Assembly (NCBI GenBank): GCA_043805415.1 | Contig: JAZDHZ010000034.1 | Coordinates: 101,478-165,477 of the forward strand | Length of the DNA: 64,000 bases | Source of the DNA: Candidatus Omnitrophota bacterium | GTDB taxonomy: Bacteria; Omnitrophota; Gorgyraeia; B26-G9 | Reading direction: 5' to 3' | Shown: one piece after another, positions 11,185-47,261 of the stretch | Position numbering within the stretch: position 1 is the stretch's first letter | How the letters are laid out: each line of letters begins with the position of its first letter | Translations under genes and position numbers: made by a program | The notes under the pieces: model-generated | Seen by the model: only the letters and a program-made list of their open reading frames with translations | What the model was told of the DNA's origin: nothing | The model's database searches: none

Positions 11185-11185
11185 T

Positions 11186-20600: not shown

Positions 20601-21625
20601 TAAAGCGGATCGAGGCGCTGACGATTCAGGTAAGTGAACTGAATAAATCCACGCTTGTCCTTGAGCAGGAAAAAGAAGAAATCGGCATGTCTTTAGAAGA
20701 ATTTAAAGAAAAACGCGGTCAATTATTAAGTAAATTTGAAGATATCCAGAATAAAATAAAAGAAAAAGAAAACCGATTAAATTATACCAAGAATCGGATT
20801 CGCGATATTGATGTTAAAAAAGTCGAGATGAATTTTAAAACCGAGTCATTGGTAAATTCAGCGAGGCAGGCTTATAAAATCGAACTGGAAACCCTGGAAC
20901 TTGAATTGCCGGAAGATATAGACTGGCAGGCGCGGAAAGAACAGATCGATGGTTTAAAAAATAAGATTGACCGGATTGGGGCAGTTAATCTGGCGGCAGT
21001 AGAAGAAGAGGAAGAATTAAGACAGCGCGCTGACTTTCTTAATAGTCAAAGCGAGGATTTGTTCGCGGCTAAGCAGACATTAATGCAGGCAATCCAAAAA
21101 ATCAACCGCACAACTAAAGCGCTTTTTCTCGAGACTTTTGAGAAATCAAAAATCGCTTTTAAAGAGTATTTCAAGCTTTTATTCAGCGGCGGCGACGCGC
21201 AGCTTCTGCTTACCGAGGGAAAAGATGTTTTAGAATGCGGGGTGGAAATCGTGGTGCGGCCTCCAGGCAAAAGACTGCAAAGCATAACCCTGCTTTCCGG
21301 AGGCGAGAAAACGCTTACGGCAATTGCCTTATTGTTCGCGATTTTTAAGATTAAGCCAACACCGTTTTGCGTATTAGATGAAATGGATGCCCCCTTAGAC
21401 GAATCGAATATTGATCGGTTCACCCGGGTTTTACAGGAATTTTTGAAAAGCTCACAATTCATAATTATTACCCATAATAAAAAGACTATTTCCATGGCGG
21501 ATGTTATGTATGGGGTAACAATGGAGCAGCCGGGTATTTCTCGGCTGGTGAGTGTGAAATTCAGCGAATTTAAAGACTCGGATAAATTAAAACAAGAGCT
21601 TATTCCTGAAGAAGCTATAATCTAG
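17669..21625 (+). CDS. smc: chromosome segregation protein SMC carrying an inserted AMPK-beta-type glycogen-binding (CBM48-like) module in the hinge region
   Basis: N-terminal Walker A FKSF...IVGPNGTGKSNI, long coiled coils, hinge (GVHDVLVNL...GRIRFITLDS), C-terminal LSGGEKTLTAIALLFAI...VLDEMDAPLD signature. Confidence 0.9.
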   Translation: MYFKKLELFGFKSFVDKTTLIFEPGVTAIVGPNGTGKSNISDAIKWVLGEQSAKSMRGAKMEDVIFNGTETRPPVNMSEVSLTLSNEERVLAIDYDEVTVTRRLYRSGESEYLLNKTPVRLRDINELLMGTGIGTESYSLLEQGRIDAIISSKPEERRVVFEEASGITRYKKQKNEAMRKLQATEENLLRVNDIIVEVNRQLNSIARQVSKARRFQENFDELKTLDTQYTYLQYKQLKEKNDLLASEETAFHAEQAGLEKELAVFSEEFDALKVTLSEVEHNYSHLNNQFVRTTSQIEQNVHAVSINNERIQEFSQRVRDYNRDLENSQKKIKELQEQINQLQIRISAFSDEKSAKELNLNLRQTTIAEIENQIKLAQKSGEENRIVAVKLLSEHAQIKNELAKLSANISNANARLLRLNQEKAKTNQEREKIDAELKSKIAEVENLRGKVNKEEGDAQNLKNNYEELNTQIKELEVNIQDSKQALVGCKSQLEMLERLSKEYEWFSSSVKSFMLQKENYPEAFAGVHDVLVNLMEVKPGYEVCVETALAEYLQAVVVDSRQVALRLREFLNQHNIGRIRFITLDSIPQIANQQSQIENTKNFLEVITCDDKYAKVLAFLVKNTFILQENIFDNPSNPLTNIKDTLSAEPDASGLLEAELLFSFKTNAANSVKIVGDFNRWNASFDSDLERKDTELWQKVLKLAPGRYTYKLVVDGQWIIDPNNPLKEIDVNGHENSVIEVLAKSQDALVAEADKPAAFDFNFLETLVSMSGELHSTAGLISRPVADQTTGLFYQKAKIRQLKQESVGLEQAVVKYKQEIDTKIQQLKFVETEFTQLNDALHEEKISLANRDSEKSSIEINRKKLVDELLVIDLEIDETTLDVQEFEEKEAAKRARLSIVDQEIVGNEQTMASNHQLIGIKNKEREELLVIIAEMKTEFSLLNEQEESLNQSFSMLYNTLKELTLNSEEFVRYKDESIKRIEALTIQVSELNKSTLVLEQEKEEIGMSLEEFKEKRGQLLSKFEDIQNKIKEKENRLNYTKNRIRDIDVKKVEMNFKTESLVNSARQAYKIELETLELELPEDIDWQARKEQIDGLKNKIDRIGAVNLAAVEEEEELRQRADFLNSQSEDLFAAKQTLMQAIQKINRTTKALFLETFEKSKIAFKEYFKLLFSGGDAQLLLTEGKDVLECGVEIVVRPPGKRLQSITLLSGGEKTLTAIALLFAIFKIKPTPFCVLDEMDAPLDESNIDRFTRVLQEFLKSSQFIIITHNKKTISMADVMYGVTMEQPGISRLVSVKFSEFKDSDKLKQELIPEEAII

Positions 21626-25853: not shown

Positions 25854-25939
25854 GCGGGGATGGTGGAATGGCAGACACGCTAGCTTGAGGGGCTAGTGGG
25901 AGCAATCTCGTGAGGGTTCAAATCCCTCTCTCCGCACCA
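25854..25939 (+). tRNA. tRNA-Leu (anticodon GAG) with long variable arm, CCA encoded
   Basis: Acceptor stem GCGGGGA/TCTCCGC. Anticodon stem CTAGC/GCTAG with loop TTGAGGG. Long variable arm. T-arm GGTTCAAATCC. Terminal CCA. Confidence 0.85.
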
Positions 25940-26244: not shown

Positions 26245-27012
26245 ATGAAAAATCCGCTGCATAACAAAATAATCTGTATGGTTTGCTTATTTATTGCAAT
26301 CAGCAATACTGCTTTACCGGTTTTTGCTTTGAATAATCCGGAATCAAGCCGAAAATATTGCCTTTCCCCGTTTTTACGTATAATCAATTCTGATTTTCAA
26401 TCCAGATTTGAGAGTCTAAACTCTGACTTATTAGACAATAATTTAAACATGCCAGGGGATCTGAAAAGCCGCGCGCTGGTAGTTGGCAGGACAAGCATAA
26501 TTTTTAATAACAAAGAAATGAGCTTTTTTGAATTAACAAAAAGCCTAAACCTTTTACTTGCCAATGATCGATTTACTTACTTTGCCAGAATTGAAAAAGA
26601 TATGGTTAAATATGCGGCATTAAGCACTGTAGAGCAGCTTTTACTTGCTTTAAAGCAGTCAGAATTATCAGAATATGCTGAGCAAATTGATATTATTCTG
26701 GCAATTTTGCATCTTTCCGCTGAAGACGCGGCAATTATCCTTAGCGGCATTGAACCTTTGCAGCAAAAATCAATTACTAATCTTACTGATAAGGCCTGGA
26801 CGAATAAATTCAGAATGAAACGATTCAGCTTAACCATGGGCTATGAGCTTGATATTGCTAAAGCTTGGTATGTTAAAACATTGGAAACAGAGGCTGAGGA
26901 AAGACAGTGGTGGCATGCTATGTGCCGCAATTCAATGCCTATGAATATGTTTAAGGGTTTGAATGCTGATTTGCAGAAAAAAAATCATGGCTTAATTGAT
27001 GCTTCAATTTAA
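26245..27012 (+). CDS. hypothetical secreted protein (C-terminus ...DASI)
   Basis: Signal peptide; no recognisable domain. Confidence 0.45.
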   Translation: MKNPLHNKIICMVCLFIAISNTALPVFALNNPESSRKYCLSPFLRIINSDFQSRFESLNSDLLDNNLNMPGDLKSRALVVGRTSIIFNNKEMSFFELTKSLNLLLANDRFTYFARIEKDMVKYAALSTVEQLLLALKQSELSEYAEQIDIILAILHLSAEDAAIILSGIEPLQQKSITNLTDKAWTNKFRMKRFSLTMGYELDIAKAWYVKTLETEAEERQWWHAMCRNSMPMNMFKGLNADLQKKNHGLIDASI

Positions 27013-27274: not shown

Positions 27275-28969
27275 ATGCATTGTATTTTTTTAAAAAACTT
27301 AGCAAGAGGATTGTTAGTTAATACTGGTTTGCTTGGTTTGCTGGTATTAGCGCAGCTGGTATTACCAGCAAGTTATTTGCACGCGCAGCAAAGCACTAGT
27401 TTTCTCAGCACCAAGATAGAAACATTGGAAGGCCCGAAGCTAAAGAAAACCGCCAAAGTAGAGCAAGTACTGAGGAACCTGGATATTCCCGCGGAATTAG
27501 GGTTTATTAAAGAAATCCACGTGCCCAAGACTCCGACAGAAAAAATGATCATCAATATCCAGGATCTGCATTGTAATTATAAAGCCCAGAAAAACATAGC
27601 CGGCATACTTGAATATTTAACCCAGACCTATGGCTTAAAACTAATCAGCGTAGAAGGCGGATCCGGGAAAATTGATACCAGTTTTTATCAGGATTTACCG
27701 GATGAAAAAATCAAAGAACAAGTCGCGGATTATTTTTTACGCGAAGCCAGAATAAACGGCACAGAATACTTTGCCATTACCACTGATCGGTTGATCCGCT
27801 TATATGGAGCGGAAGATGAAAAATACTATGATAAAAACCTGGACGCGTTTATGCGGGCCCTGCCGGCAAGGGAAATTATTCTGGAGACAATCGCTGTATT
27901 AGAAAATGATCTGAACATTCTAAAAAACAAAAGCTATAATAAAAAGCTCAGAGAACTTGATGATCATATCGTGGCCTATGACAATGGAGAAATGGGATTT
28001 GAAGACTATATCCAATACATATCCAGATTATCCGCGGAACAAAACGTAAAGCAGGAATTTGACCAGGTAAACCAGCTGGTAGAAAGCATTAAATTCAAAG
28101 ACTCGATAAGCATAGAAAAAGCCGAAGCCCAGAGAAAAGAACTGATTGATCATCTGACCAGTAATTTGTCTCGATACGAGATGGAAGAATTTTTAAAAGC
28201 AACCGTAGAATATAAAGCAAAAACCATGGACAATCTGACCTATCACAGCACCTTGCAGAAACTATACAATCAAATGGATAAAAAGAGCCTGACTTTAGAT
28301 CGGAAATGGCCGGATTTAAATGGATACATTGAATACTTAAAAAGACATGAGACCTTGGATAAATTCGCTTTATTTACCCAGATCGACAAACTAGTGGAAC
28401 GGATAAAAAACAGTTTATATACCAGCTATACGCAAAAGACATTAGATTATAATTTAAAGATCGTCAGACTAGCCAGAAGCTTATTTTCCACCAAGCTGCT
28501 GAATAAAGATCTAACTTTAGTCAGCAAATACCACACAGACTTTAATGCTAAAAAGATGAAGACATATATTCAAAAAGAAGCCAAGCGGTTAAAGCTTGAT
28601 TTAGCTATACCGGATGATGAGCGGTTAAAGCAAATGGAAGAGACTTTACCGGCAGTAGAAGATTTTTATCGCTATGCTTCGAAGCGCAATGATATCCTGG
28701 CCAATAATACTTTGGACGGCATGGCTAAAGAAAACGAAGACATCGGAATCCTGATCACCGGAGGATTTCATACTGATGGTATAACCGATTACTTAAAAGA
28801 CAAAAGAATAACTTATATTGTAATCGTGCCCAAGATCGAAGAGCTGGAAACAGATGATACCCGCTATATTAATGCTTTGCAGGGCAAGAAAACGCCGTTT
28901 GAGGAAATGATTGAAAAAGAAGATAAATCAGCAGTAACTCCAGAAACTGCTGATTCAGCAACCCCTTGA
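27275..28969 (+). CDS. hypothetical secreted/anchored protein, 564 aa
   Basis: N-terminal hydrophobic signal anchor; RBS AAGGAAGG; no recognisable domain. Confidence 0.45.
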   Translation: MHCIFLKNLARGLLVNTGLLGLLVLAQLVLPASYLHAQQSTSFLSTKIETLEGPKLKKTAKVEQVLRNLDIPAELGFIKEIHVPKTPTEKMIINIQDLHCNYKAQKNIAGILEYLTQTYGLKLISVEGGSGKIDTSFYQDLPDEKIKEQVADYFLREARINGTEYFAITTDRLIRLYGAEDEKYYDKNLDAFMRALPAREIILETIAVLENDLNILKNKSYNKKLRELDDHIVAYDNGEMGFEDYIQYISRLSAEQNVKQEFDQVNQLVESIKFKDSISIEKAEAQRKELIDHLTSNLSRYEMEEFLKATVEYKAKTMDNLTYHSTLQKLYNQMDKKSLTLDRKWPDLNGYIEYLKRHETLDKFALFTQIDKLVERIKNSLYTSYTQKTLDYNLKIVRLARSLFSTKLLNKDLTLVSKYHTDFNAKKMKTYIQKEAKRLKLDLAIPDDERLKQMEETLPAVEDFYRYASKRNDILANNTLDGMAKENEDIGILITGGFHTDGITDYLKDKRITYIVIVPKIEELETDDTRYINALQGKKTPFEEMIEKEDKSAVTPETADSATP

Positions 28970-29061
28970 TTTATTTTTTAAGGCTTATGAATATATCTTT
29001 ATATTTAGCAGTAAGTTAAGCGTTTTAAGCTAAAGAGTAAATACTGGCGGGAAATTTAATA

Positions 29062-29073
29062 ATGTGGTATAAT
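29062..29073 (+). promoter_or_regulatory. extended -10 promoter TGTGGTATAAT (weak -35)
   Basis: TGnTATAAT-type extended -10 element about 185 nt upstream of the 29258 start. Confidence 0.4.
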
Positions 29074-29257
29074 TTACCAGCTTTTTTACGGTTTTATAAT
29101 AGTGCAAGTAATTGAATATTAAAAATTAACAGCATTTTATTGCTGAAATAGTGATTATTTTATATTGCTACTTGTAGTGATTCTAAAAAAAAATAGAATG
29201 ACGAAAAGGTAGTGATTTATTCATTTTTATTTATTTACTTACCAAAAGCAAGGGAAA

Positions 29258-32200
29258 ATGAATTATAAACAGAAATCAAAATTCAGGCTGATATTTAGAG
29301 TCATTGCCAGCGTGCTTTTACAGGCATTTTTATTTACAAATTTTGCCTGGTGCGGTGCTGATCAGTTTATTCAAGGCAATACTGTTTGCGCGCCGGCAAT
29401 TAGCAGTACAACTATTTCTCCCGCGATCCAAGTCACTGAAGCTTCAATTCAAACTCTTTTTGTTCAATCCGCCGCGTTCCAAATGGGCAAAAGAGCAGAG
29501 TTTAAAGGCCTTGATTCTTTAAAGCAGGCAGAAGTGGAAAATGCTTTAGGCGATAAATTTAGTTTAAGCCTGAATCTAAAAGGAAAGCTAAACACCGCGT
29601 CAGTTATTCAAAATATCGAAAAAAGAACAGATATCAAAGCGGATTATAAGAAGATCCTAAACGCGATGATCCTTGAATTCGGCAAACTGGATGTTAAGTT
29701 CTATTCATATGAGACATTAGTTGAGGACTTGTTCGGGTTTGCTTCTGCTGGCAATAAGATGATCGCGATTCATTCCTCGGTATTCAGTAATCCGATTGCT
29801 CAGACGCATGAAATCGGGGAATTCTTAGCGCAAGCAGGAATGCTGAATTTTTCGCTTGGCCAGGATGACCAGCTATTGATCAGCTTAAATGGCAGTTTAA
29901 TCGGCAGGATAAAATTATCGGAAGATGCTTTGGCAATCGCGAAGAAAGATCCGTCCAGTAACCATTATTTGCTGCGGGCTTTTCAACGGGAGGTTTTTCA
30001 GGATAAGGATCGGGCTTTAACCGCTGGGATTAAAAACAAGCAGGGGGATTTATCTTCCGCGATGAAAATTTTTCTTAAAACCATAAATGCTGAGACTGGA
30101 AACAAAGTTGAAGCAAGTATGTCTTTGTCTAAACTTAATGACCCGATGTTCGAGGCGCTGTTTAAAGATATTGAGTTTAATCGGTTTTCCGAAAACGATG
30201 CGGCAAAATTAAAGATAGCGATACTATTGCAGAATAACATTGCTATTGAGCCTATTGCTGAACCCTTGCTTCAAGAGTGCGGGATGCTGAATAAGGAATC
30301 CGCTGATCTTTATGAAACCATATTCCCGGCTGCGGGAACTCCTGGTTTTAGCCCAAAAAAATTATTCGCGAAAGAAAATGTTAATCCGGATAATCTGCAT
30401 CTTATCTTTGAATTAGCTAAGCGCTATAGTCCGATTAAAGCGTTTAGCGATAAGTTAGACAGAATCTACCGCGAGCTTGCCTTATACACATTGCCGGTAA
30501 GTCCGGGAGCAAGATATCATATATCTTTGCTTAAAGATCTAAACAGTATTTTATTGTCCGGAGGACGGATTAAAGAATCAAAGCACTCGCTTAGCGGTCA
30601 GGGTGTTTATTTCTTTGAAATGGGAAATTCCGGCTTAGTCAATGCGCAGACACGCTTAGCTGAGTTTTTCCCTTTTATCTCCAGCTCGCCGCATGATCTG
30701 GCAGATGCGGATTATGTGGTTAAGGCGTTCAGGCAAAAGATTGCCCGAGACGCGAAAGATAATGCCCGGATATTCCCGGTTGTAATCCAGGTTGCTGAGG
30801 ATATCCCGGCTGAAGCTGCGATGGGCTGGGCTTTTCGTGAGGATTATAAAAAGGCGGGAAAGCTTATCCGCGATGAACTTAATGCCCAAGAGTATGAATT
30901 TTTAATCAACCTGAATTATTTATATCTTAGCGAGAACCAAGCGGTTAAAAACCATTTGCTCGCGAAAAATATTATTAGAGAAGAAAACGGGATAATCAGG
31001 CTGGTTGATGCTTCGCGGGCGATTCAGGATGAAAACAAAAAGAATACGGGTTGGGCCAGAATGAGATTTGCTGACTTGCGTTATGAAGTGATCAATCTTT
31101 CCTACACAAAGCTGGATAGTGATATCCAGAAGCTTAGCGCCAAGATGGCTCAATTACTCCAGAATCTTCTCGCTGATAAAATGAGCGTATCTTCGGTTGT
31201 GGATACAGGCTCATCAAATCGCGGGCTTACTGTGGAAAATCCGGATTTTGATTTTCTGATTAAAATTAATTCCCCAGAGGATTTTACGGCAATTGTTAAG
31301 CTGCTGCTTGATGAAAAAATATTAGAAAATTTTCTCAAGGAGCATAAAGCTGCTTTTGAAGCGATCTATGGCGATAAGTCCGTGAGTATTGTCACCGAAC
31401 AGCCGCATGCCGTAGGCAAAGGCAATTTATATTTGTTTCCGTTTAAATTTGTCGCGGCTAACCGGATTGTCGGCGGGGTTGATTTTAATTTTTCCAAGCT
31501 TTCAGCGGGAAAAGCCGAGACTTTGAGCTATCACGAGACAGCGCGGCAGCAGCTGCAAGCCATACTGGATAAAGTTCCCGAAGCAGAACAAAAACAGCTT
31601 TCCCGCTATCTTGCCGGAGAAATTAAAACCCTTAAAAAATTAATTATAAATCAGGGTTTATATAAAGATAAGGATACAAAACGAAATAGATTTATCGGCG
31701 TGGCAGTAGAACAAATGATCTACAATCTCAGCGATTATCTGTCTATGCCAAGCAATATTTCCACTGCTGAAATTAAGAGCATATTTTCAATAAAAACCGC
31801 GCTTTATTTAATCAGCCGGATGGAAAGCGAAAGATTAAATGGTCTGTCATTTTCTCTGTATCAAAGAGCAAATGGAAGCGGGTTTTCTAATCAATCGGTA
31901 AAATACGATTTAAGGGATAATGAAAAATCAGTTATCCCTAAAGTTGGGACGGCTTTTGCCGGTTTTAAAGAGTTTTCAGAAGCGGAAAATGCCGGAGTGA
32001 AAAATAAAATTAAAGGATTAATAACTGATTTTATTAGCCGGCCGGGGAATAAGGTAAAAATTATTGAGTTTTTTGCCAGGTACAATAATGAAGTTGACGC
32101 GGCGATTGCTTTAGGTCAGGCGAAACCTTTTAGTAACTGGGAATTTTTTGAAAGATGGGAATTCACGCACCGGTTTTTTACTCTGCATAAAACAGAGATT

Positions 32201-32560
32201 GATATATTCGCGATAGATAAGACTGATATGTCTCAGGACGCGAAGCTGAAAATAGCGGAAATGATCAACGGATTAAAAGCCGGGATAACTGAGTCAATGG
32301 GTGTGAGTGAAGATAAAATTACCGGTCGGGAAATCACGCGGTGGTTTAAAACTCCTTCTTCGCGGAATAAGCAGCTGAGAGATTTTTATTTTCAATATGG
32401 GGCAATAACAGCAGAACCTATATCCATCCTGGGTTTTGCTGGGTTTTTAATGAATATTCCGGCATTGCGTTCGGCAGCTGATGCTGAGCGAAAAGCGGCG
32501 CCTTTAAGCGGTATTATAAACCGCAAGCCGCTCGAACAATTAGTCGGACAGTCAATATGA
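29258..32560 (+). CDS. giant secreted protein (1100 aa) containing a Pol-beta-superfamily nucleotidyltransferase motif. The N-terminal leader is paralogous to the next gene.
   Basis: Leader MNYKQKSKFRLIFRVIASVLLQAFLFTNFAWC. NTase signature VDTGSSNRGLTVENPDFDFLI (GS-x-G...DxD). The C-terminus ends in LVGQSI. Confidence 0.5.
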   Translation: MNYKQKSKFRLIFRVIASVLLQAFLFTNFAWCGADQFIQGNTVCAPAISSTTISPAIQVTEASIQTLFVQSAAFQMGKRAEFKGLDSLKQAEVENALGDKFSLSLNLKGKLNTASVIQNIEKRTDIKADYKKILNAMILEFGKLDVKFYSYETLVEDLFGFASAGNKMIAIHSSVFSNPIAQTHEIGEFLAQAGMLNFSLGQDDQLLISLNGSLIGRIKLSEDALAIAKKDPSSNHYLLRAFQREVFQDKDRALTAGIKNKQGDLSSAMKIFLKTINAETGNKVEASMSLSKLNDPMFEALFKDIEFNRFSENDAAKLKIAILLQNNIAIEPIAEPLLQECGMLNKESADLYETIFPAAGTPGFSPKKLFAKENVNPDNLHLIFELAKRYSPIKAFSDKLDRIYRELALYTLPVSPGARYHISLLKDLNSILLSGGRIKESKHSLSGQGVYFFEMGNSGLVNAQTRLAEFFPFISSSPHDLADADYVVKAFRQKIARDAKDNARIFPVVIQVAEDIPAEAAMGWAFREDYKKAGKLIRDELNAQEYEFLINLNYLYLSENQAVKNHLLAKNIIREENGIIRLVDASRAIQDENKKNTGWARMRFADLRYEVINLSYTKLDSDIQKLSAKMAQLLQNLLADKMSVSSVVDTGSSNRGLTVENPDFDFLIKINSPEDFTAIVKLLLDEKILENFLKEHKAAFEAIYGDKSVSIVTEQPHAVGKGNLYLFPFKFVAANRIVGGVDFNFSKLSAGKAETLSYHETARQQLQAILDKVPEAEQKQLSRYLAGEIKTLKKLIINQGLYKDKDTKRNRFIGVAVEQMIYNLSDYLSMPSNISTAEIKSIFSIKTALYLISRMESERLNGLSFSLYQRANGSGFSNQSVKYDLRDNEKSVIPKVGTAFAGFKEFSEAENAGVKNKIKGLITDFISRPGNKVKIIEFFARYNNEVDAAIALGQAKPFSNWEFFERWEFTHRFFTLHKTEIDIFAIDKTDMSQDAKLKIAEMINGLKAGITESMGVSEDKITGREITRWFKTPSSRNKQLRDFYFQYGAITAEPISILGFAGFLMNIPALRSAADAERKAAPLSGIINRKPLEQLVGQSI

Positions 32561-32602
32561 ATATTCTCTAGGGCAATATGATTGGGTAAATGGAACAAGA
32601 TA

Positions 32603-35600
32603 ATGAATTATAAAAAATCAAAATTCAGGCTAATCTTTAGAATAATCTCATTAGTGCTTATCCAGGCATTTCTGGTGCTTGATTTTGCCTGGGCAATAGG
32701 CGGAGAATTTCCTATTGCTGATAAAATTTCTCAGGCTGCTACGCTTGCCCCGAAAATTAGTTTAAACACTCAGGAAGTCTGGGATGCTTATGTTTACAGT
32801 TCGCAAAATTCAGCTAAGATCAATGAACTTTCCTTACCTTCTGATCAGCCGATGGTTAATATTCCCAACCAATCTCCCCTGATCAGCCGGAGAGCGTTTT
32901 TCAAAACTGTTGGGCAAAAGGTTATTGGGGCTGCCGCGGTATTAACCGGAGCGGATCTGATATTGTCGGCGCCGGCAGAAGCCAGAGACTTAACCGTGGC
33001 TTTAAGCGATTTAGTGATCAATTTTGATAAAGGGGTTGCTGAAGCGGAGTTAAATAAATATATCGCGATTATTGAAGCTCAGGGTTTTAAAGAGTTATAC
33101 AGTTTAGAAAAAAAACAAGCGCAGACATTAATCAGAATTAAGGGGTTATTCCCGCTGAACGCGGAAAAATTATCTTACGCGCTTAATGCTCAGGCTAAAG
33201 CCAGAGGTCTGGCCAAAGGGTTTGTGGTCACAGCTAGTGACGCGAGCTGGAAGCAATCGCTTACTTATCGGAGCATGCAGGCTTTTGCGAATAAAGTAGC
33301 GCGTCTTTCAGCCAGCCTGGGATTCGGGGAGATCGATTCTCCGCAGCTTATTGGGCTTTATGAGGGGATTACCTGGGTTGAGAGTAAATTTAACCAATGG
33401 GAAACCGATGCCCAGGGCAGAATCAGACCAGTAAGGTCATATACCAATGCTATCGGAGTTACCCAGGTTATAGAATCTCAGGCTGTTAAGCAGATTGCCA
33501 GGTGGATAGTAACGCATAAGGGTGGAATATCCCGCTACGCGGAAATCATGAATGAGCTGGAAAGAATGATTTCCTCTGATAGTGAAAAGCTAAAGAAATC
33601 ACTCAAGGCGAATAAGAAATTCGGGGAAGAAGCCGAAGCCCTGAAACAGTTTAATGTCTATGCTGATTTCGCGGCTTATAAAAATGCCGGATCAGATATT
33701 GAAAAACAAAAACAGATAATTCAACGAATTCACAGAAAGATCAATAGTAATCCTAAGCTTATCGGCGTGAATTTATATTACGCGCTTGCTGTTTGGCAGT
33801 ATTTACAAAACAGGAATAATCTGCGAGCGGGAGTTACCGCTGAGCTTGCCGAATCAATGGGGCAAACCGGACAAGGGCTGACCAGAAAAAATCTTCCGCT
33901 TATTGAATCCGGTTCCGGGGCATATCAGCCAATGGATCTGGAAAAAGCCGGCTTGCAGTTTGAGAGTGATTATTTCCGCTTAAATCTGCTTTATCAAATG
34001 ATTAATCCCGAGAAGATTGCTGAGCTTTTGCAAGGCGCGGAAAGTAAAATATTAGTCAACACCATGGAATACTTATCGCGGCAGATGATGACAAAAATAG
34101 GCAACCAAAAGCTTGGCTATACTTATCTTACGCTGAACTGGGATCGATACCGCCGCCTGGAACTAAGGAAAAATAAAAATAATCAATATGAGTTTACCGA
34201 AAGGCCTTTAAGTTATTTTCAAAATAAGCCTAATGGTTTTTCCGTGAGTCTTGCCGCGGCAGCTTCATATAATTCCGGGACTGGCAGTGTGGACGATGCT
34301 TTGCTGAATTTTGGTAATGCCGTAGACGCGAATAATCTTCCCTTATGGATTAAAAATATGATCGGAGCCAATCCCCAAAATATTCGGGAGCCGATAAATT
34401 ATTTAAGGGTTTTTCTGGAAGATAAGTTTAATAATACCGGAGATCTCTCGGCCCAAGAGCAAAAAATTAAAAACGAGCTTATTGCCGAACGCTATAAACG
34501 CGTTTATAAAATCCAAGACCGATTGCTGGAAAAAAGAGCTTTAATCCACAAAAACAAGGTTCGGATATACGCGGCTTATCGGCGCGATGATGGTTTTGAT
34601 TATAAGCTGGCTGCCTGGGTTGCCCAGATCGCGGGCAGTGATTATGTGGATAGTTTTTTAAGAACCCATGGATTGGATAAAAAATGGCAAGAGGAAATTC
34701 TTAAATCTTCCCAGACACTTGATATTTTAGCACCGGCTTTGGCAGATGTGAATTCGCCGGGATATGCTGCCGCGGTAAATATCCGGCGGTATTTAGATTC
34801 AAAACAGCTGGCTTCTTTGGCTAAGCGGCAAGAAGCCTTTAAGTCTAAAGAACAGGCCCGGATCGCGAGAATTGAACTGGCTAAACAAATATCTAAGGAA
34901 AAACAATGGCAGAAAACCCTGGAGGGAATGACCAGCTGGGCAATGCGTTCCACGGTCGGGGTTGCTTCGCTTGGCGCGGCCGGCGCGATTGCCTGGATTA
35001 TAAACCGCAGGGTCAAGCTGGGTAAAAAACCAGTGCCTTCGCTTATCTATCGGCTGCCATTGCAGGGTTTTTGGATTCTGGGATTTGTTACTGTCCGGCT
35101 GTTCGCGATAGTTGGAAAAATTCTGTTTGGAACCGGTAAATATGTATTCAGCTTTTTTGCTAAAGCAAAACCGCGGATAAATAAACCAAGAAGCGCGCTT
35201 CTTGCCGATCAAAAGGTAGTTAGAAATAACCGGGTTAAACAAGCGGAAAACAGATATAAAAATAAGAACCGCTTTTTTTCAATAGCTAATTTAAAAAAAC
35301 TGATTCTGGGATCAATCTTACTGGCAATAATTGCCTGGCCTTTTGCTTCCCCGGCTTTTTCTCACGCGTCGCAAAAGCAGGCACAAGCTCCTCCGGCAAT
35401 TAGTTTAAGCCAAGAATTTAAAAAAGGCTTAATTGAAATCAGTAAGAAAAGTGACCATAAGCAGCTGAATGCTCAGGGCGAGCTTACCACAATAAAAGCT
35501 AATTTAAAAAAGAATCTTGAATTCAGCAATAGCAAAGCCCGGGAAAGGGTAGAGCAGATCAATCAGTTAGCGGAAAGAAATTGGCAAAAAGCGTATGTTA

Positions 35601-38600
35601 ATGGCGAATTAGATGAATACATAACAAAAAGAGGGCAGTCAGAAGATGCTCTTGCGATTGGCAAGGCGCTGTTTATTTTGCAAAGCGCTGCTCCGGAAAT
35701 TTATCAAGGTTTAAAAAAATATAATGCTTCTATATATCTGGCAGAGATCCCCTTCTATGGTTACGCGCGCGGTTCACGAGTATTTGGGCTTGGCGGCAAA
35801 CCAATGGTATTTGTAAATAAAGATTTTCTGAATAATCCTTTCAAAATCGCGCTTGTTTTATCTCACGAAGGTCATCACGCGATTCTTTTGCCCAAAGATT
35901 TACTGGAATCCGCGCTGCGGTATAATTTTTTTACTTTTATCAGGGATGTATTGTACAGTATTCCCCAGGGGGAAAAAGAAGCTTTCGAGATCCAGGCGGG
36001 AGTGGCCAGAGTTTTTTATATTGAGCCGATAAAAGGAAATATGTCTTATGACCCGCTTGATGTGGAAATTGCTTATGGTAGTCAGAAATGGCAAATAGTT
36101 GGGTTGGATATTTTAGGTACCGGCTTGTTCAATGTTATTCCTTTGATTGCCGGATGGTTAATCCTAAAGTTTTTTATGAATAGCAGCCGCGCTGGAAAAA
36201 GCCGAGATTATCAAAGATCAGGCAGCGGGGGATTGTCTAATCTGATAAACAGCAATTCAAGAAATAACAAGCGTCTGATTAGAAAAGGACGCGGTAAACG
36301 CAAAGGGAATTTCTTTTGGTCAATTATTTTAATCCCTTTGCTTGCTTTTCAATTCAGCAGTTTTCTTAGTCCCGCGATTACTCAAGCAAGTGATGTTTTT
36401 ATCCAGCCTCAGGAGAAAACAGAAATAACCGAGTATAAAAATGAACAGATTATAAATCCGATCCTTGGCACTGATCTTAAAGTAAACTCCCATTTTGGCC
36501 CACAGGAAGGAAAGCATAATAACGCGTTAGCTGATTGGTCCGAGGCGGTGATCAGAGGAGTTATTCAGCCCAACGCGGATATAATCCATGTTGATTTTCA
36601 TGCTGATGATTCCGGCGCGGTAATGGACGCGGATATGCTGGCCTTGAACGAAGTTAAGAATTTAAAAACTTCTCAGGAAAAAATCCAGGCAGTGCGGGAT
36701 ATCGCGGCTCATCTGAGAATAGATTCGTTTTATTACCCGGCTTATTTAACCGGACCAACCGGTCAATCAATATTGGGCACAACCTTTTGGGTTCGTCCGG
36801 AAGCAGAATGGCAGGGCGCGGCGAAAGAGCAATATATTGTCAGTGCTCCCTATGGAACGTTCCCCACGGATCATCCTGAGAAATATCCAAATGACAAGAG
36901 GATCAAAAGGTATGAGCTTAATGCCGATGATTTATCTTTAGTCGGGAAAAATGCTCAGTTAAAAAATGGGTTTATTCTGGACATTGATCTGGATTATTTT
37001 ACTTTGCATCGGGAAGATATGAATTGGGTTTATATGCGGGAGCTGCTTGAAAGAAAAGATGAAGCTTCTCAGAAATTAGCAAAGTCGATTCTTAAGACAG
37101 TCCACTATCAGCCGACCAGGCAGCAGCTGCAAAAAAATATTGATTTGTTTATTGACCAGCTCGCGAAGCTGCATGAACGCGGTATAGACCCGGGAATCAT
37201 TTCTGTTTTTGAATCACCGAATTTTACAGCTTATGCTGATGCTAAATGGGTAAATGACCAGTTAGTAAAGGGGTTCAAAGCTATTTACGGCAAAGGCTCT
37301 GCTTTAGCCGCGAAAGACCAGAAACCAAAGAGCGCGGCAAGCTCTGGCTGGAAAAAAATCTCAATCATGGGATTGGTGTCTGTAATCTCCGCGTCTTTTG
37401 CTAATTTGTTTTCCGTGGCTAATCTCTGGGCCATGGAAAATGGAGCGGATAAGGCTTTTGCTTCCTCTGATTTTAAATCAATAGTAACCTACCTTATCAC
37501 AATCGCCTTAATTGGCTTTTTAGTTAAATCGGGATTAAAAGCGCTTAGTTTAGCTAAACAAAAAAACGCGGAACAGCAGGCCGCGGTGATTGTTCCCAGC
37601 CAGGCGGCTTTGGATAAATTAAAAAAATTAGACACTGACATCAGCGCTTTATTTGCTCAAGGGAAAACTCAGGTTATTATCGCCTTTGACGGTCCCTCCG
37701 GCGCGGGCAAGACAACATTGGCTAATTATATTAAGGCAGTTGGTATTGCCGGAATACAGCCATCTGAAATACAGGTATTGTCGCGTGATGATTACGCGGT
37801 TGGCGGTGATTATAATGAGGCGAATATCGTGATTTTAGAAAAAATCTGGCATCGCGGAAAATTAGTTATTGTTGAGGGCAATGGAATCCAGTGGGCCAGT
37901 GCGGTATTAGCAGCAGATGCCGCGTATGCTAATCCGGATATATTTGTTAAAATAACCGCTGCTGAACAGCTGCGCAAACAAAGGCTATTAGAAAAAGGCT
38001 TGTCAGAGTCAGCGGCAAGTGAGCGGATTAGAACAGCATCTGGTCCTGATTCCGGTTTGTTTGATATTATTATTCAAGATCCTTATATCGAGGTTAACAG
38101 CTTGCGCAAGTCCGCGGAATATATAAAGGCTGAGAGCATATTGCGTTCATATCCTAATGACTCCGGCCTTGCTTTAATTCGTGAATTTGTCTTAGATCAA
38201 ATGCTTAGTTCTGATCGGCGCGGTATTATTGTTTATCATAATGAGCGCCATCTTAATGAGTTGTTTGAGTTTTTTGATGCAATATCAAAGCATTTACCGT
38301 TTAAAAATAAAGCCAGCGCCGAGCGTTTGATCCGCATGGCGATTTATCTGCATGATCTGGGCTACTTTTATTCAGAAGATGGATTGCTTATTCCTGGGCA
38401 TGAACAAAGAAGTAAAGATGAGGTTCTTGAATTTGTTAAGAAAAATCCCGGAATATTGTCCGCGGTTGAAGTCCAGTCGATTATGTATCTGATTGATAAA
38501 ACGCAGCTTAAAACCGGTGACGCGATTAAAAATGAAATCAGCGATGATAATAAAACCTATGACTTGCTGGATCGAATTAATAACGCGCAAGAATCAGGTT

Positions 38601-41542
38601 TAACTGCTGAGGATCAACAGTTTTTAGCAAGTTTTATGGAAAAAAACTTTCCGGACGCGAATCCGCGGAATCCGCGAGACCGGCAGCTGGTGCTGGATAC
38701 TATTTTGGGTGGCAAAGCCTTGGCTTTAGCGGATATCTGGGGCCAGGACCAGACATATCTTTATCAGGTTGCTTTATTAAGTCAGGAATTCCGTTATGAT
38801 AAACAGATAATGCTGAATAATAATGATCCTAACGCAGCCAAAAGCCCGGCAGCTATGAGCAATCTGGAACAGGTCGGGGGAAGCAGCGGATTCCAAAGCT
38901 TTGCTCAAGACATGAGGTTTGTTTTCTTTTTAAATAGCGCGGATTATCCGATGCTGGGCATGCAGCAGTATCTTGACGCGGAACAAAAGGAAAAACAAGC
39001 AAAAGGGGAAAAAGAAAAAGCGCTTATTGACCGCAGAACAGCGATGATTGAAAAGAGCAATCAGGTTCAATCTTTAACCAATGTTTTGACCAGCGGAGTT
39101 GATGAAAACCTTAATATCATCGGCCTGGCTAAAGACACTGATCAGCTTCCTCAGGTTATAGCTTTAAAAGAATTTATCGATGAAGGCCTTGGATTAGGCA
39201 TATACGATGACGCGCAAAAAGCGCAGTTAATCTCGGAAATAAACAGCAGAAACGGACTGATTTTCCGGGGAATAGACAATCAGTTTGATCTAGCGGTAGA
39301 CGCTGCTTACATCGCGGAGCTTGCTCCGACTGTTGATGATATATTAATCAGTTCAAAATTTGCTGAAATTTTAAGTGAGCAGGAATTAGCGGAATTGACT
39401 TCTTCCTGGGAGATTAAGAAGTTTTCTCCTGGTCAAGCGATTGTCCAACAGGATATTCCTGATGCGCAAGGGGTTTTTCTGATCCTATCCGGAAATCTGG
39501 ATGTTTTTGTCAATGGATATCATGTGGGGGAAATTCCTCAGGGTGAGCTGTTTGGGGAAATGTCAGTGCTTGATAGTGCTTTGCGCAGCGCCACTGTAAG
39601 AGTTTCTCAGCTTGCCAGCCAGCAGGCGGTAATCGCGGAAATACCAGCGCCTGTATTCACTAAATTATTCGGGGCAAACCGACAGCTGAAACAAAAGATT
39701 AAAGCCCTGATTCAGACAAGAAAAGAAAATTCGCGAAAGGTTTTGGACGCGGAAGAAGAAAAAGATGATGAAGTAAAATTAAAACATAAATTTGAAAGCG
39801 GCCAGCTGGATACAGTGGTTTTTGTTGATGTTGATCTGATGCGTTTAACCAATCAGTATGTTGCCAAGAAAAATGTGAATGTTTTGCTTGATGTTCTGGA
39901 AACAGAATTTGAAAAAGTGATAAAAGCTCTGGGCGCTGAAAATGCCGTAAGCCTGCGCCGCGGAGGAGATGAATTTATTCTGGCAATTAATTCCCGCGAA
40001 AATAAGCAGCAAGCGATTGATATTGCCGCAAAACTTAAAAATAATGTTCAGAGCGCGAAATTTTCGCTTGCTTCAATCGGAACTGACAGGCTTTCTCAGG
40101 AAAGAATCGCGGAAATCGAAAGTTTTGGATGCGGCATAGACACGATCGGTAAGCATAATATTATAATTGTTGGGCAGAAAACAGGCGGTAAAACAGGCCG
40201 GGCTTGTGTGCAGGAATTTCTCGATACAGTCAATGCCATTAGCAGCTTAAAAAATCCGGAAAACCCGGAAGCGGAAGTTTTAAGCATTCAAAGCTCTTGG
40301 CTGGACCAGCCGGCTGTTAACAATGAAGTTAGTTTTACCTTGTCAATCGGCTTGGCAAATGTATCTGAAATTGACAATGTGCCTGGATCTAATCTTTATG
40401 AAAAAGCGCGCAACTTCGCGGCGCAAAGAAAAGATAAATCAAAAGAAATATTTAAAAAACTCGGAGATGGACATATTGAAGCTGTTTCCAGTTTCGCGCC
40501 CTTGGGCGTGGCTGGGGAGAGTATTCTTTTGACTGAGCAAGCAATTGCTGAGCACGCAGATTTCGAACAGCTGCAGGCTGAAGCTAATCGCCTGGAAGCT
40601 GAGCAAATGGAAGCTGAGCAAATCCCGACAGGCATCAGGCATAAGTTTGCCGAAGGTGAGGAGGTATTGTATTTTTCTTCAGAAAATGCCGCGCGGAGTC
40701 ATCTTAACGCGATGCGAGACAATCAGGAACTTAATGCGGCGATTGCTTTTTCGCTGCAAGGATTGGGTTATTATGATCAGGAAGGAAAGATTGATCAATA
40801 TAAAGCGGAATACTACACTTCCCCTGGGGCAGTTAAAGATAATCGGATAGATATCCGTGATTTTAAAGTGGTTAATGAAGCGCATGGCTATGTGGCGGGT
40901 GATGAAATTATCGCGCGCCTGCGCATCGGCGCGATGCGCTTTGCCAGGTTATTTGAGAACTTTGATCTGGTATTTGCCCGCGGCCCTCCGGCAGGACCAA
41001 ATGGATTTCTTATTCCAAAAACAAAACAAGCCGCTGAAATGAACCCAACAGAAGTGCAGGTAATGTTTGTTGAATATATGCGGCAAATAAGAGATTATTT
41101 TAATAAACCGAATGAATCGGCTGTAAAAGTCGGGCAGTTAAGAGTTGTTTGGGATCGAGTTAGCCAAGAGGATAAAAATATCGGAAATGTGATCGAGCGG
41201 ATTAGTCAGACACGCGCGGTTTATGAACAAAAAACTAAACCGAAAAAAGGCAGAAACATGGTTTTAAGATATGATCCTAGTATCCCGGATAAGTGGAGCT
41301 CATTAGCGGAACTTAATGCCCCGGATGCTGTCGCGCAGCTTGAGAATCTTAAAATTATATGGCAGCAAAATAAGCAGCAGTTAGATGCTTTTGCTAATTC
41401 CCGGAAAGTTAGCGGAACCCTGAGACTTGGCACAAAGATTGATTCCATAGATCCTGGATTGCGCGGACCTGCGTTTTCTCTGCAAGGTGATAATCTTAAT
41501 CAGCAATCAAAAAATATCTCTCTTCTGGAACAAGCGATTTAA
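32603..41542 (+). CDS. mega-protein (about 2980 aa): conserved leader, internal twin-arginine-like motif, lytic-transglycosylase-like segment, at least 6 TM helices, HExxH motif, arginase/deacetylase-like motif pair, P-loop nucleoside-kinase-like domain, HD domain, cNMP-binding domain, GGDEF domain (RRGGDEF) and a degenerate GGDEF domain
   Basis: ATG at 32603 (MNYKKSKFRL...); the listed ORF uses a TTG at 32582. Motifs: ITWVESKF..SYTNAIGVTQV; LVLSHEGHHAIL; IIHVDFHADD and FILDIDLDYF; IIAFDGPSGAGKTTL; IYLHDLGYF; GELFGEMSVLD..RSATVRV; VSLRRGGDEFILAI; IDIRDFKVVNEAHGYVAGDEII...FARGPPAG. The C-terminus ends in LLEQAI. Confidence 0.6.
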   Translation: MNYKKSKFRLIFRIISLVLIQAFLVLDFAWAIGGEFPIADKISQAATLAPKISLNTQEVWDAYVYSSQNSAKINELSLPSDQPMVNIPNQSPLISRRAFFKTVGQKVIGAAAVLTGADLILSAPAEARDLTVALSDLVINFDKGVAEAELNKYIAIIEAQGFKELYSLEKKQAQTLIRIKGLFPLNAEKLSYALNAQAKARGLAKGFVVTASDASWKQSLTYRSMQAFANKVARLSASLGFGEIDSPQLIGLYEGITWVESKFNQWETDAQGRIRPVRSYTNAIGVTQVIESQAVKQIARWIVTHKGGISRYAEIMNELERMISSDSEKLKKSLKANKKFGEEAEALKQFNVYADFAAYKNAGSDIEKQKQIIQRIHRKINSNPKLIGVNLYYALAVWQYLQNRNNLRAGVTAELAESMGQTGQGLTRKNLPLIESGSGAYQPMDLEKAGLQFESDYFRLNLLYQMINPEKIAELLQGAESKILVNTMEYLSRQMMTKIGNQKLGYTYLTLNWDRYRRLELRKNKNNQYEFTERPLSYFQNKPNGFSVSLAAAASYNSGTGSVDDALLNFGNAVDANNLPLWIKNMIGANPQNIREPINYLRVFLEDKFNNTGDLSAQEQKIKNELIAERYKRVYKIQDRLLEKRALIHKNKVRIYAAYRRDDGFDYKLAAWVAQIAGSDYVDSFLRTHGLDKKWQEEILKSSQTLDILAPALADVNSPGYAAAVNIRRYLDSKQLASLAKRQEAFKSKEQARIARIELAKQISKEKQWQKTLEGMTSWAMRSTVGVASLGAAGAIAWIINRRVKLGKKPVPSLIYRLPLQGFWILGFVTVRLFAIVGKILFGTGKYVFSFFAKAKPRINKPRSALLADQKVVRNNRVKQAENRYKNKNRFFSIANLKKLILGSILLAIIAWPFASPAFSHASQKQAQAPPAISLSQEFKKGLIEISKKSDHKQLNAQGELTTIKANLKKNLEFSNSKARERVEQINQLAERNWQKAYVNGELDEYITKRGQSEDALAIGKALFILQSAAPEIYQGLKKYNASIYLAEIPFYGYARGSRVFGLGGKPMVFVNKDFLNNPFKIALVLSHEGHHAILLPKDLLESALRYNFFTFIRDVLYSIPQGEKEAFEIQAGVARVFYIEPIKGNMSYDPLDVEIAYGSQKWQIVGLDILGTGLFNVIPLIAGWLILKFFMNSSRAGKSRDYQRSGSGGLSNLINSNSRNNKRLIRKGRGKRKGNFFWSIILIPLLAFQFSSFLSPAITQASDVFIQPQEKTEITEYKNEQIINPILGTDLKVNSHFGPQEGKHNNALADWSEAVIRGVIQPNADIIHVDFHADDSGAVMDADMLALNEVKNLKTSQEKIQAVRDIAAHLRIDSFYYPAYLTGPTGQSILGTTFWVRPEAEWQGAAKEQYIVSAPYGTFPTDHPEKYPNDKRIKRYELNADDLSLVGKNAQLKNGFILDIDLDYFTLHREDMNWVYMRELLERKDEASQKLAKSILKTVHYQPTRQQLQKNIDLFIDQLAKLHERGIDPGIISVFESPNFTAYADAKWVNDQLVKGFKAIYGKGSALAAKDQKPKSAASSGWKKISIMGLVSVISASFANLFSVANLWAMENGADKAFASSDFKSIVTYLITIALIGFLVKSGLKALSLAKQKNAEQQAAVIVPSQAALDKLKKLDTDISALFAQGKTQVIIAFDGPSGAGKTTLANYIKAVGIAGIQPSEIQVLSRDDYAVGGDYNEANIVILEKIWHRGKLVIVEGNGIQWASAVLAADAAYANPDIFVKITAAEQLRKQRLLEKGLSESAASERIRTASGPDSGLFDIIIQDPYIEVNSLRKSAEYIKAESILRSYPNDSGLALIREFVLDQMLSSDRRGIIVYHNERHLNELFEFFDAISKHLPFKNKASAERLIRMAIYLHDLGYFYSEDGLLIPGHEQRSKDEVLEFVKKNPGILSAVEVQSIMYLIDKTQLKTGDAIKNEISDDNKTYDLLDRINNAQESGLTAEDQQFLASFMEKNFPDANPRNPRDRQLVLDTILGGKALALADIWGQDQTYLYQVALLSQEFRYDKQIMLNNNDPNAAKSPAAMSNLEQVGGSSGFQSFAQDMRFVFFLNSADYPMLGMQQYLDAEQKEKQAKGEKEKALIDRRTAMIEKSNQVQSLTNVLTSGVDENLNIIGLAKDTDQLPQVIALKEFIDEGLGLGIYDDAQKAQLISEINSRNGLIFRGIDNQFDLAVDAAYIAELAPTVDDILISSKFAEILSEQELAELTSSWEIKKFSPGQAIVQQDIPDAQGVFLILSGNLDVFVNGYHVGEIPQGELFGEMSVLDSALRSATVRVSQLASQQAVIAEIPAPVFTKLFGANRQLKQKIKALIQTRKENSRKVLDAEEEKDDEVKLKHKFESGQLDTVVFVDVDLMRLTNQYVAKKNVNVLLDVLETEFEKVIKALGAENAVSLRRGGDEFILAINSRENKQQAIDIAAKLKNNVQSAKFSLASIGTDRLSQERIAEIESFGCGIDTIGKHNIIIVGQKTGGKTGRACVQEFLDTVNAISSLKNPENPEAEVLSIQSSWLDQPAVNNEVSFTLSIGLANVSEIDNVPGSNLYEKARNFAAQRKDKSKEIFKKLGDGHIEAVSSFAPLGVAGESILLTEQAIAEHADFEQLQAEANRLEAEQMEAEQIPTGIRHKFAEGEEVLYFSSENAARSHLNAMRDNQELNAAIAFSLQGLGYYDQEGKIDQYKAEYYTSPGAVKDNRIDIRDFKVVNEAHGYVAGDEIIARLRIGAMRFARLFENFDLVFARGPPAGPNGFLIPKTKQAAEMNPTEVQVMFVEYMRQIRDYFNKPNESAVKVGQLRVVWDRVSQEDKNIGNVIERISQTRAVYEQKTKPKKGRNMVLRYDPSIPDKWSSLAELNAPDAVAQLENLKIIWQQNKQQLDAFANSRKVSGTLRLGTKIDSIDPGLRGPAFSLQGDNLNQQSKNISLLEQAI

Positions 41543-46275: not shown

Positions 46276-46731
46276 ATGGAAAAAAAAATCATTGCGTCTA
46301 ATAAGCGGGCAGCGCATCGCTATGAGATTATTGAAAAAATCGAAGCTGGCATTGAATTGCAAGGCACAGAGGTTAAATCACTCAGAGCCAATCAGGTTGA
46401 CTTAAAAGACAGCTTTGCCAGAATTGACGGCGGACAGATTTTTTTGCATAGTTTATACTTAAGTCCCTATGAAAAAGCAAGTTATAATAATGCTGATCCC
46501 AAAAGAGTCAGAAAGCTTTTACTGCATAAAAAGCAGATTACCAAGCTGTTTGCGAAAATGCGGGAAAAAGGCTATACTTTAATAGCTTTGAATATTTACT
46601 TTAATGATAAAGGCCGGGCAAAAGTCGAACTGGCTTTGGCCAAAGGCCGCAAATTGTACGATCAGCGGGAAAAGATTAAAGATAAAGAAACTGAACAGCG
46701 TTTGCGCAAGATAAGCAGCATTCGGAAATAA
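46276..46731 (+). CDS. smpB: SsrA-binding protein SmpB
   Basis: NKRAAHRYEIIEKIEAGIELQGTEVKSLRA...; about 150 aa with a basic C-terminal tail. Confidence 0.9.
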   Translation: MEKKIIASNKRAAHRYEIIEKIEAGIELQGTEVKSLRANQVDLKDSFARIDGGQIFLHSLYLSPYEKASYNNADPKRVRKLLLHKKQITKLFAKMREKGYTLIALNIYFNDKGRAKVELALAKGRKLYDQREKIKDKETEQRLRKISSIRK

Positions 46732-47251: not shown

Positions 47252-47261
47252 AAATAAACAA

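Follow-up and report, generated by a model that had tools for sequence, protein, structure and literature searches.

Nucleotidyltransferases (NTases) of the Pol-beta superfamily are very well known, and their catalytic chemistry is ordinary. Those of the two-lobed class I type, comprising the poly(A) polymerase (PAP), TUTase, archaeal CCA-adding and OAS enzymes, place a helical second lobe directly after the catalytic lobe. Here we describe a protein of 1100 residues with such a domain, encoded in a 64,000-nucleotide stretch of DNA from a Candidatus Omnitrophota bacterium (contig JAZDHZ010000034.1, positions 101,478 to 165,477; henceforth the window). The domain has a true NTase fold of the Pol-beta type, and its catalytic residues are complete and conserved. 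What is unusual is the setting: an enzyme dependent on nucleoside triphosphates (NTPs) lies behind a predicted signal peptide, its phylum is suspected of harbouring predators and episymbionts, and other proteins with the same leader and C-terminal tail carry cofactor-dependent "cytoplasmic" domains. Omnitrophota have been proposed as predators or parasites (PMC10066038), and V. archaeovorus RNA has been visualised within archaeal cells (PMC13153191).

The open reading frame (ORF) begins with an ATG that is closely preceded by a Shine-Dalgarno-like AAGGGA. Its product is identical to NCBI entry MFH1062775.1 (locus tag V1747_07845), a "hypothetical protein" from a Candidatus Omnitrophota metagenome-assembled genome (MAG) on a 169.5-kb contig. 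The initial annotation of this DNA, made without database searches, had placed the ORF at 29258-32560, quoted the motif VDTGSSNRGLTVENPDFDF (aa 648-666) and given a gap of 42 nt to the next gene. All three were reproduced from the sequence, the gap being correct with the neighbour's start at ATG 32603, where its leader begins, and not at the mechanical TTG 32582. No riboswitch or other known RNA was found in the region scanned upstream (28900-29300), and promoter and terminator scans around the gene returned background levels only.

A two-lobed Pol-beta nucleotidyltransferase domain

The NTase domain lies in the C-terminal half of the ORF, and its features are as follows.

29258..32560, plus strand: whole ORF, 1100 aa, ATG start.
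31109..31837, plus strand: two-lobed Pol-beta NTase domain, aa ~618-860, with a catalytic lobe and a PAP/OAS/CCA-type helical lobe.
31205..31255, plus strand: catalytic signature TGSSNRGLTVENPDFDF, aa 650-666, holding G651, S652, R655, D663 and D665, all invariant columns of an eight-sequence alignment.
31481-31483, plus strand: third carboxylate, D742 (GGVDFNF), on a later strand, invariant in 8/8 sequences.
31622-31720, plus strand: second-lobe motif IKTLKKLIINQGLYK...FIGVAVEQMI, aa 789-821, aligned to residues 146-180 of the Archaeoglobus fulgidus (A. fulgidus) CCA enzyme.

The bare motif is modest evidence by itself: in 5000 shuffles of the protein, the pattern used in the initial annotation arose at a rate of 1.0%, and the classical hG[GS]x5-14DhDh pattern at 1.7%. 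Conservation was examined in an alignment of eight NTase regions, whose members are 21-37% identical to the window protein. The hG[GS] and [DE]h[DE]h signature of the superfamily is present, with G651, S652, D663 and D665 unchanged in all eight members, and R655 completes the invariant part of the GS...DxD signature. Outside the signature, Y704, D742 and Y758 are also invariant, as are I789, L792, K793, G800, Y802, G814, E818 and Q819 in the second lobe. Directly after the catalytic lobe, the class I helical second lobe is found with its h(R/K)xLKxW/h...GhY...G.xG...hh motif.

An AlphaFold2 model of aa 600-900, built from the eight-sequence alignment, reached a mean predicted local distance difference test score (pLDDT) of 76.8 and a predicted template modelling score (pTM) of 0.77. 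The elements follow in the expected order of helix, strand, GS turn, DxD strand and later D742 strand; the GS turn lies between model strands 45-50 and 64-71, and D742 falls within model strand 137-148. Foldseek comparison of the model with the PDB showed three-dimensional similarity to solved NTases, with 80 matches at E<=1e-3. The top matches belong to the Pol-beta superfamily: PAP-gamma (1.4e-5), Pla1, PAP-alpha, TUT1, TUT7, GLD-2, Cid1, Trf4 and CutA. Thus, the motif reported initially marks a real fold, as the complete conserved catalytic set, the model and the Foldseek matches attest. The fold is not the "minimal" NTase first described, however, since the core is joined to a helical lobe of the PAP/OAS/CCA type.

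Sequence profiles gave weaker signals that are mutually consistent and stand in the correct order along the NTase sequence. The Pfam models NTP_transf_2 (PF01909) and MTPAP-like_central both fall exactly on the motif, each in 3/8 members and below threshold (14.6-17 bits against a cutoff of 21, E 0.008-0.04, for the former; 16 bits against a cutoff of 27 for the latter). The NCBIfam model cca_archaeal matches 2/8 members (best E=0.008), likewise under its cutoff. Searched with the family profile, the OAS2 catalytic motif comes up at E=0.004 and a minimal NTase at E=0.039, and the second-lobe motif aligns to residues 146-180 of the archaeal CCA enzyme at E=0.02. These signals would favour the CCA/PAP/OAS enzymes over the CD-NTases. 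Because no curated model reaches its cutoff, we file the domain as a new family in the superfamily and not in any named family. Superfamily membership rests on fold and active site, and we do not place the domain in Pfam NTP_transf_2, where its score is below threshold. The NTase is thus of the two-lobed class I type, in the structural class of PAPs, TUTases, archaeal CCA enzymes and OAS.

Two other assignments were considered and rejected. An NCBIfam match to riboflavin kinase/FAD synthetase is regarded as spurious (E 4e-4, 20 bits against a cutoff of 461). A toxin NTase of the MenT/AbiEii type is not close: MenT3 appears in the Foldseek output with a TM-score of just 0.20. No RNA-binding accessory domain was recognised, aa 288-600 and aa 860-1048 being without assignment.

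The 1100-aa protein is rare. A word-indexed homology search covering 5.8 billion proteins found two relatives only: P0002 (893 aa, 37% identity across 74% of the query) and P0003, which has only an N-terminal module in common with the window protein. An exhaustive HMMER search of 1.84 billion representatives, with a profile of the window protein and P0002, returned 86 proteins, and the matches divide the query into separable modules. Most are due to an N-terminal module at aa ~70-265 (henceforth module A), while the NTase-motif region (aa ~620-870) occurs in six other proteins only (P0004, P0029, P0048, P0065, P0082 and P0086). Repeating the word-indexed search with the NTase and module-A alignments gave one protein each, which is uninformative on distribution. 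No further relatives appeared in 185,579 species-representative genomes or in JGI metagenome contigs, and a single-sequence PDB search with the whole protein returned nothing relevant.

The contexts of the NTase family vary. It is fused with methyltransferase or FHA domains in the Omnitrophota proteins P0065 and P0082 and stands alone in P0048 and P0086. For the cassette of middle region and NTase, the closest relative after P0002 is P0004 (contig L006, 8001-29846), a protein of 7281 aa that has it near the C-terminus; an HD-type motif, YYLIHDIGKLGD, comes after the NTase. Its contig is archaeal by an RFC small subunit (473 bits) and an archaeal-type TyrRS (391 bits). This distribution suggests that the cassette is common to archaea and Omnitrophota.

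Leader, tail, module A and the neighbouring gene

From N- to C-terminus, the protein consists of a signal peptide with a post-leader motif, one module A, the middle region, the NTase and a [GE]Q[AS]I tail. These parts, the adjoining gene and the other ORFs with the same ending are listed here.

29258..29353, plus strand: predicted Sec-type signal peptide, aa 1-32, from inspection, hydropathy and phmmer against the window ORFs.
29411..29434, plus strand: post-leader motif TISPAIQV, aa 52-59, corresponding to the "[TS]L[AS]P..h.I" motif of ORFs with this leader and tail and of many module-A giants.
29453..30064, plus strand: module A, aa 66-269, beginning with the strand "QMGKRAE".
30119..31057, plus strand: middle region, aa 288-600, with counterparts in P0002 and the archaeal giant P0004 alone.
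32402..32557, plus strand: C-terminal segment, with weakly hydrophobic aa 1049-1067 and the tail ...LVGQSI-COOH, a [GE]Q[AS]I terminal motif.
32561..32602, plus strand: intergenic spacer of 42 nt, with no convincing terminator.
32603..41542, plus strand: linked downstream gene for a 2979-aa multi-pass membrane protein with a homologous leader.
6256-11184, 11120-15142 (leader near 11183), 26245-27012, 29258-32560, 32603-41542, 41723-43429, 48991-51357 and 53147-55489, all plus strand: ORFs ending in [AS]I.

The leader combines a basic n-region (K4, K6, K8, R10 and R14) with a hydrophobic core at aa 15-29, and A30-W31-C32 stand at the likely cleavage site. By inspection and hydropathy, it therefore has the basic n-region, the core of 12-20 residues and the small residues at -3 and -1 that are looked for in a signal peptide, and by these signs the leader reported initially is of the Sec type. 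Over aa 1-70 it matches the leader of the downstream neighbour (E=1.5e-10, phmmer), and it is also homologous to those of a 1340-aa ORF (11120-15142; leader start near 11183) and a 780-aa ORF (53147-55489). At the DNA level, the two adjacent genes start almost identically over ~40 nt (29258-29299 and 32603-32641), with 72% identity over 105 nt, and the leaders of the corresponding pair on another contig (L001, see below) diverge more than those of the window pair. The pattern suggests that, in this genome, the leader was duplicated locally or underwent gene conversion.

At the other end of the two neighbouring proteins, the common tag consists of the last three to four residues only (..GQSI and ..EQAI). 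It is a terminal peptide and nothing larger, because the C-terminal regions share no domain-level similarity. Endings of this kind recur along the window: 8/37 ORFs end in [AS]I, mostly as [GE]Q[AS]I (binomial P=6e-9). A signal-like N-terminus, often with ..NFAWA, is clear in seven of these eight tagged ORFs and is then followed by the "[TS]L[AS]P..h.I" motif. Some of the tagged proteins carry cytoplasm-type enzyme domains (GH77 4-alpha-glucanotransferase, glucan-water-dikinase-type Ig and S-adenosylmethionine (SAM) methyltransferase). Many module-A giants from other genomes resemble them, with leaders ending in AWA, then LAPxSxF or LQVQSIFKP motifs, and small or hydrophobic tails such as ..LLAA, ..LRSL and ..LTAI. 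Leader and tail together thus appear to form a general sorting-type signature and not a mark of the pair, and the signature is possibly a ligand of the PDZ or tail-recognition type. Since at least eight window ORFs carry both, they are unusable as evidence for a two-gene system. Of the leader and tag that the protein was first said to share with its neighbour, the leader homology is real; the tag amounts to three or four residues, and neither is specific to the pair. No description of the signature was found in the Omnitrophota literature searched.

An alpha-glucan theme runs through 6256-15142 and 43626-45791, with a tagged 1642-aa GH77 protein, a tagged 1319-aa protein with the glucan-water-dikinase-type Ig domain and an untagged GH116. 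An SMC protein at 17669-21625 on the plus strand, with SMC_N and hinge, has an inserted glycogen-binding AMPK1_CBM/CBM48 domain at aa 667-744, and the position just past the SMC hinge is an unusual site for a carbohydrate-binding module. The alpha-glucan proteins and this CBM48 suggest exported glycogen- or starch-handling enzymes. The window also holds a tRNA at 25854-25936 and a tmRNA at 46820-47252 (176 bits). The latter lies directly downstream of a 151-aa ORF (46276-46731), presumably SmpB.

Module A is the most widespread part of the protein. A local hidden Markov model (HMM) found 108 copies in 76 proteins of the 86-protein set, with up to four copies per protein, most of these proteins being giants and the longest having 7,703 aa; in the window, no ORF other than that of the 1100-aa protein has one. 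Six of the module-A proteins carry an organism name, five from Omnitrophota MAGs and one labelled Elusimicrobiota. Conserved features include an N-terminal strand Q[IM]GKRA, a helix with H184-E185-x-x-E188 (HExxE) and Y237, which are invariant or near-invariant, and H236 and R240, which are invariant. The AlphaFold fold obtained with a 44-sequence alignment is confident (pLDDT 92.1, pTM 0.87), and neither Pfam nor a PDB sequence-profile search yielded a match. In place of the zincin HExxH motif, module A has HExxE, with invariant H236 as a candidate third ligand. With low confidence, we regard it as possibly, if weakly, zincin-like and perhaps a processing module, the nearest known systems being minigluzincins and other zincin metallopeptidases.

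For the middle region (aa 288-600), neither Pfam nor the PDB offered a counterpart. A reading of it as an H-Y-E ADP-ribosyltransferase (YH[IV]SLL...SGQGVYFFE...[EQ][YF]E) was rejected: profiles from Pfam and the PDB lent it no support, and P0002 has Gln at the position of the His. Over the last 200 aa of the protein, conservation extends to P0002 alone. Everything outside the NTase had first been called unrecognisable; this does not hold for the signal peptide or for the confidently folding module A (aa 66-269); the middle region is unassigned.

The downstream 2979-aa protein (henceforth the mega-protein) has about eight hydrophobic segments, a UPF0489/arginase-like domain and a P-loop kinase-like region. 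A cyclic nucleotide (cNMP)-binding domain scores above threshold and a GGDEF match below it (22.9 bits against the Pfam value of 23.8); an HD domain did not show up at E<=0.1. Immediately ahead of the second hydrophobic segment stands a Tat-like SRRAFFK (about aa 94-100), an SLT-like motif set (ES...GVTQV...SYNSG) spans about aa 250-565, and HEGHH (HExxH) lies at aa 1088-1092 (nt ~35864-35878), inside a block conserved with the neighbour on L001. The NTase gene is probably co-transcribed with this gene.

Conservation of the gene pair, which the initial annotation had proposed to check, was found in the sole other contig with an ortholog, L001 (4.4 kb). There, 30 nt separate P0002 from a following gene whose product matches the mega-protein twice: over residues 1-123 it resembles the leader region (37% identity), and over residues 99-452 it corresponds to aa 894-1250 (46% identity, E=2e-91). 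The contig ends before the cNMP/GGDEF part, the neighbour being readable to the equivalent of mega-protein aa 1250. Since L001 has the same order, the adjacency is conserved across ~37% protein identity (n=1).

Proposed function of the putatively exported nucleotidyltransferase and its alternatives

We favour, as the probable explanation, an exported multi-domain Omnitrophota protein with a genuine, probably active two-lobed NTase that would transfer nucleotides to the 3'-OH of RNA or of a nucleotide, possibly acting in or on a host. D663, D665 and D742 would bind two Mg2+ ions, and G651-S652, R655 and K793 would hold the triphosphate of the NTP. A nucleoside monophosphate (NMP) would then be passed, template-free, to a 3'-OH acceptor, which would most likely be an RNA 3' end and less likely a second nucleotide. 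The protein would leave the cytoplasm by the Sec pathway, as one of a leader-and-tail-tagged set carrying cytoplasm-type enzyme domains. NTPs are not available outside cells. For this reason, and because the same leader and tail occur on other cofactor-dependent enzymes, the most plausible site of action for the tagged set would be a host or prey cell with which contact has been made, either at that cell or within it.

Several points weigh against this reading. Export was judged by eye, and for an NTP-dependent enzyme it poses a paradox that only delivery into another cell would resolve; such delivery is wholly inferential. All curated family models stay below threshold, so that the sequence evidence is weak by itself. 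The structure depends on an eight-sequence alignment, with TM-scores of 0.34-0.47, and the fold gives no separation of RNA-tailing enzymes from CD-NTases or from inactive domains of the DZF/MiD51 type. Finally, conservation of the gene pair comes from one additional contig.

The initial annotation saw in the gene pair a dedicated nucleotide second-messenger system. On this account, the NTase would be a CD-NTase-like synthase whose cyclic or linear nucleotide signal is sensed or processed by the cNMP, GGDEF-like and kinase modules of the co-transcribed mega-protein. The neighbour has an above-threshold cNMP-binding domain, and the adjacency is conserved once. We consider the proposal unlikely. 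PADLOC CD-NTase ("Cyclase") models match 1/8 members at E=0.016 and one at 0.067, Pfam SMODS or Mab-21 do not match, and CD-NTases resemble the model structurally no better than RNA-tailing enzymes do. The second-lobe motif finds its counterpart in the archaeal CCA enzyme, and OAS/PAP-type profiles align with the core. The predicted signal peptide would put the NTase in another compartment than the cytoplasmic sensor modules, and elsewhere the family has unrelated partners (methyltransferase, FHA, HD in the archaeal giant) or none. Leader and tail are general signals and not specific to the pair, the neighbour on L001 is seen only to the equivalent of aa 1250, and the GGDEF match of 22.9 bits falls short of 23.8. 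Thus, a dedicated messenger system is not supported by the structural comparison, the CCA/PAP/OAS signals, the predicted export or the varied family contexts.

The same enzymology could also be carried out without export, and we hold this equally unlikely. Here, the N-terminal helix would stay uncleaved and anchor the protein in the membrane, or the topology would be inverted, and the NTase would sit on the cytoplasmic face and act on the cell's own RNA or nucleotides. NTP-dependent chemistry needs the cytoplasm, the -1 residue at the putative cleavage site is Cys and not Ala, and for nearly half of the long proteins of Omnitrophota the prediction is a membrane anchor with the bulk in the cytoplasm (bioRxiv 10.64898/2026.06.07.730766). 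By contrast, the helix has five basic residues before it and acidic or neutral ones after it, which predicts an N-in/C-out orientation. Moreover, paralogous leaders end in a canonical A-W-A, other tagged ORFs have the same leader, and that of the neighbour is followed by a region with an SLT-like (peptidoglycan-lytic-type) motif.

A more elaborate form of the export reading is speculative, and we would not bet on it. Effectors tagged by the leader, a post-leader LSP/LAP motif and an [AS]I/AA-type tail would be exported and delivered into contacted host or prey cells, where the class I, archaeal-CCA-like NTase would tail the 3' ends of host tRNA or other RNA, or make a nucleotide signal, and so disable or reprogram the host; module A would be self-processing, as in the cutting of giant polyproteins. 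The NTase cassette in the archaeal giant P0004 hints at module exchange between episymbionts and archaea.

It is quite improbable that the domain is a catalytically dead pseudo-NTase serving as a scaffold or binding module, like the DZF domains of NF45/NF90, MiD49/51 or Utp22. The fold alone would accommodate it, but the three carboxylates, the GS motif, R655, K793 and Y802 are all invariant at 21-37% identity, which would be unexpected for a dead site. That the motif is a chance match in a protein with no NTase fold, the outcome that would have overturned the initial annotation, can practically be dismissed: the pattern does arise in 1-2% of shuffles and all single-sequence HMM matches are sub-threshold, but the alignment, the Foldseek search of the model and the structural comparison effectively refute it.

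Comparison with known systems

We conclude that what is new here is an NTase family that stays below the threshold of every curated model, its predicted exported multi-domain context and its place among leader-and-tail-tagged Omnitrophota proteins. Neither the NTase family nor module A nor the leader/tail signature was found mentioned in West-Roberts et al. 2023 or Nielsen & Lui 2026. Module A, as a candidate processing domain, and the leader and tail, as a candidate sorting signal, may outweigh the NTase in importance, and together they could make the processing and targeting of large Omnitrophota proteins testable. If the tagged proteins were delivered to host cells, they would constitute a new effector repertoire, and a protein of 1100 aa, as against 40,000 aa, would offer a tractable entry to the unexplained biology of the large proteins of this phylum.

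Compared with TUT7/TUT4, GLD-2/TENT2, Cid1, Trf4, CutA and canonical PAP, the window NTase is 9-16% identical, with TM-scores of 0.34-0.47 and no family HMM at threshold. Unlike the poly(A) and poly(U) polymerases, the window protein is bacterial, has a signal peptide by prediction and sets its NTase among unrelated modules in 1100 aa, and no RNA-binding or zinc-knuckle accessory domain was recognised in it. The archaeal class I CCA-adding enzyme (A. fulgidus, PDB 1r89/4x4n) has tRNA-measuring body and tail domains, of which the window protein shows no sign; scores are far below the family cutoffs, the architecture differs and the window protein is predicted to be exported. With respect to the CD-NTases and OAS, the locus is without a CBASS-type operon, a signal peptide is atypical, and the second-lobe motif is CCA/PAP-like.

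The closest parallel in setting is with the giant and long exported proteins of Omnitrophota (10.1101/2023.11.21.568195; 10.64898/2026.06.07.730766). Although its 1100 aa lie far below the "giant" range, the window protein resembles them in phylum, in combining a signal peptide and/or transmembrane helices with cytoplasm-type enzymes and "dark" sequence, and in its module A, found also in proteins as long as 7,703 aa.

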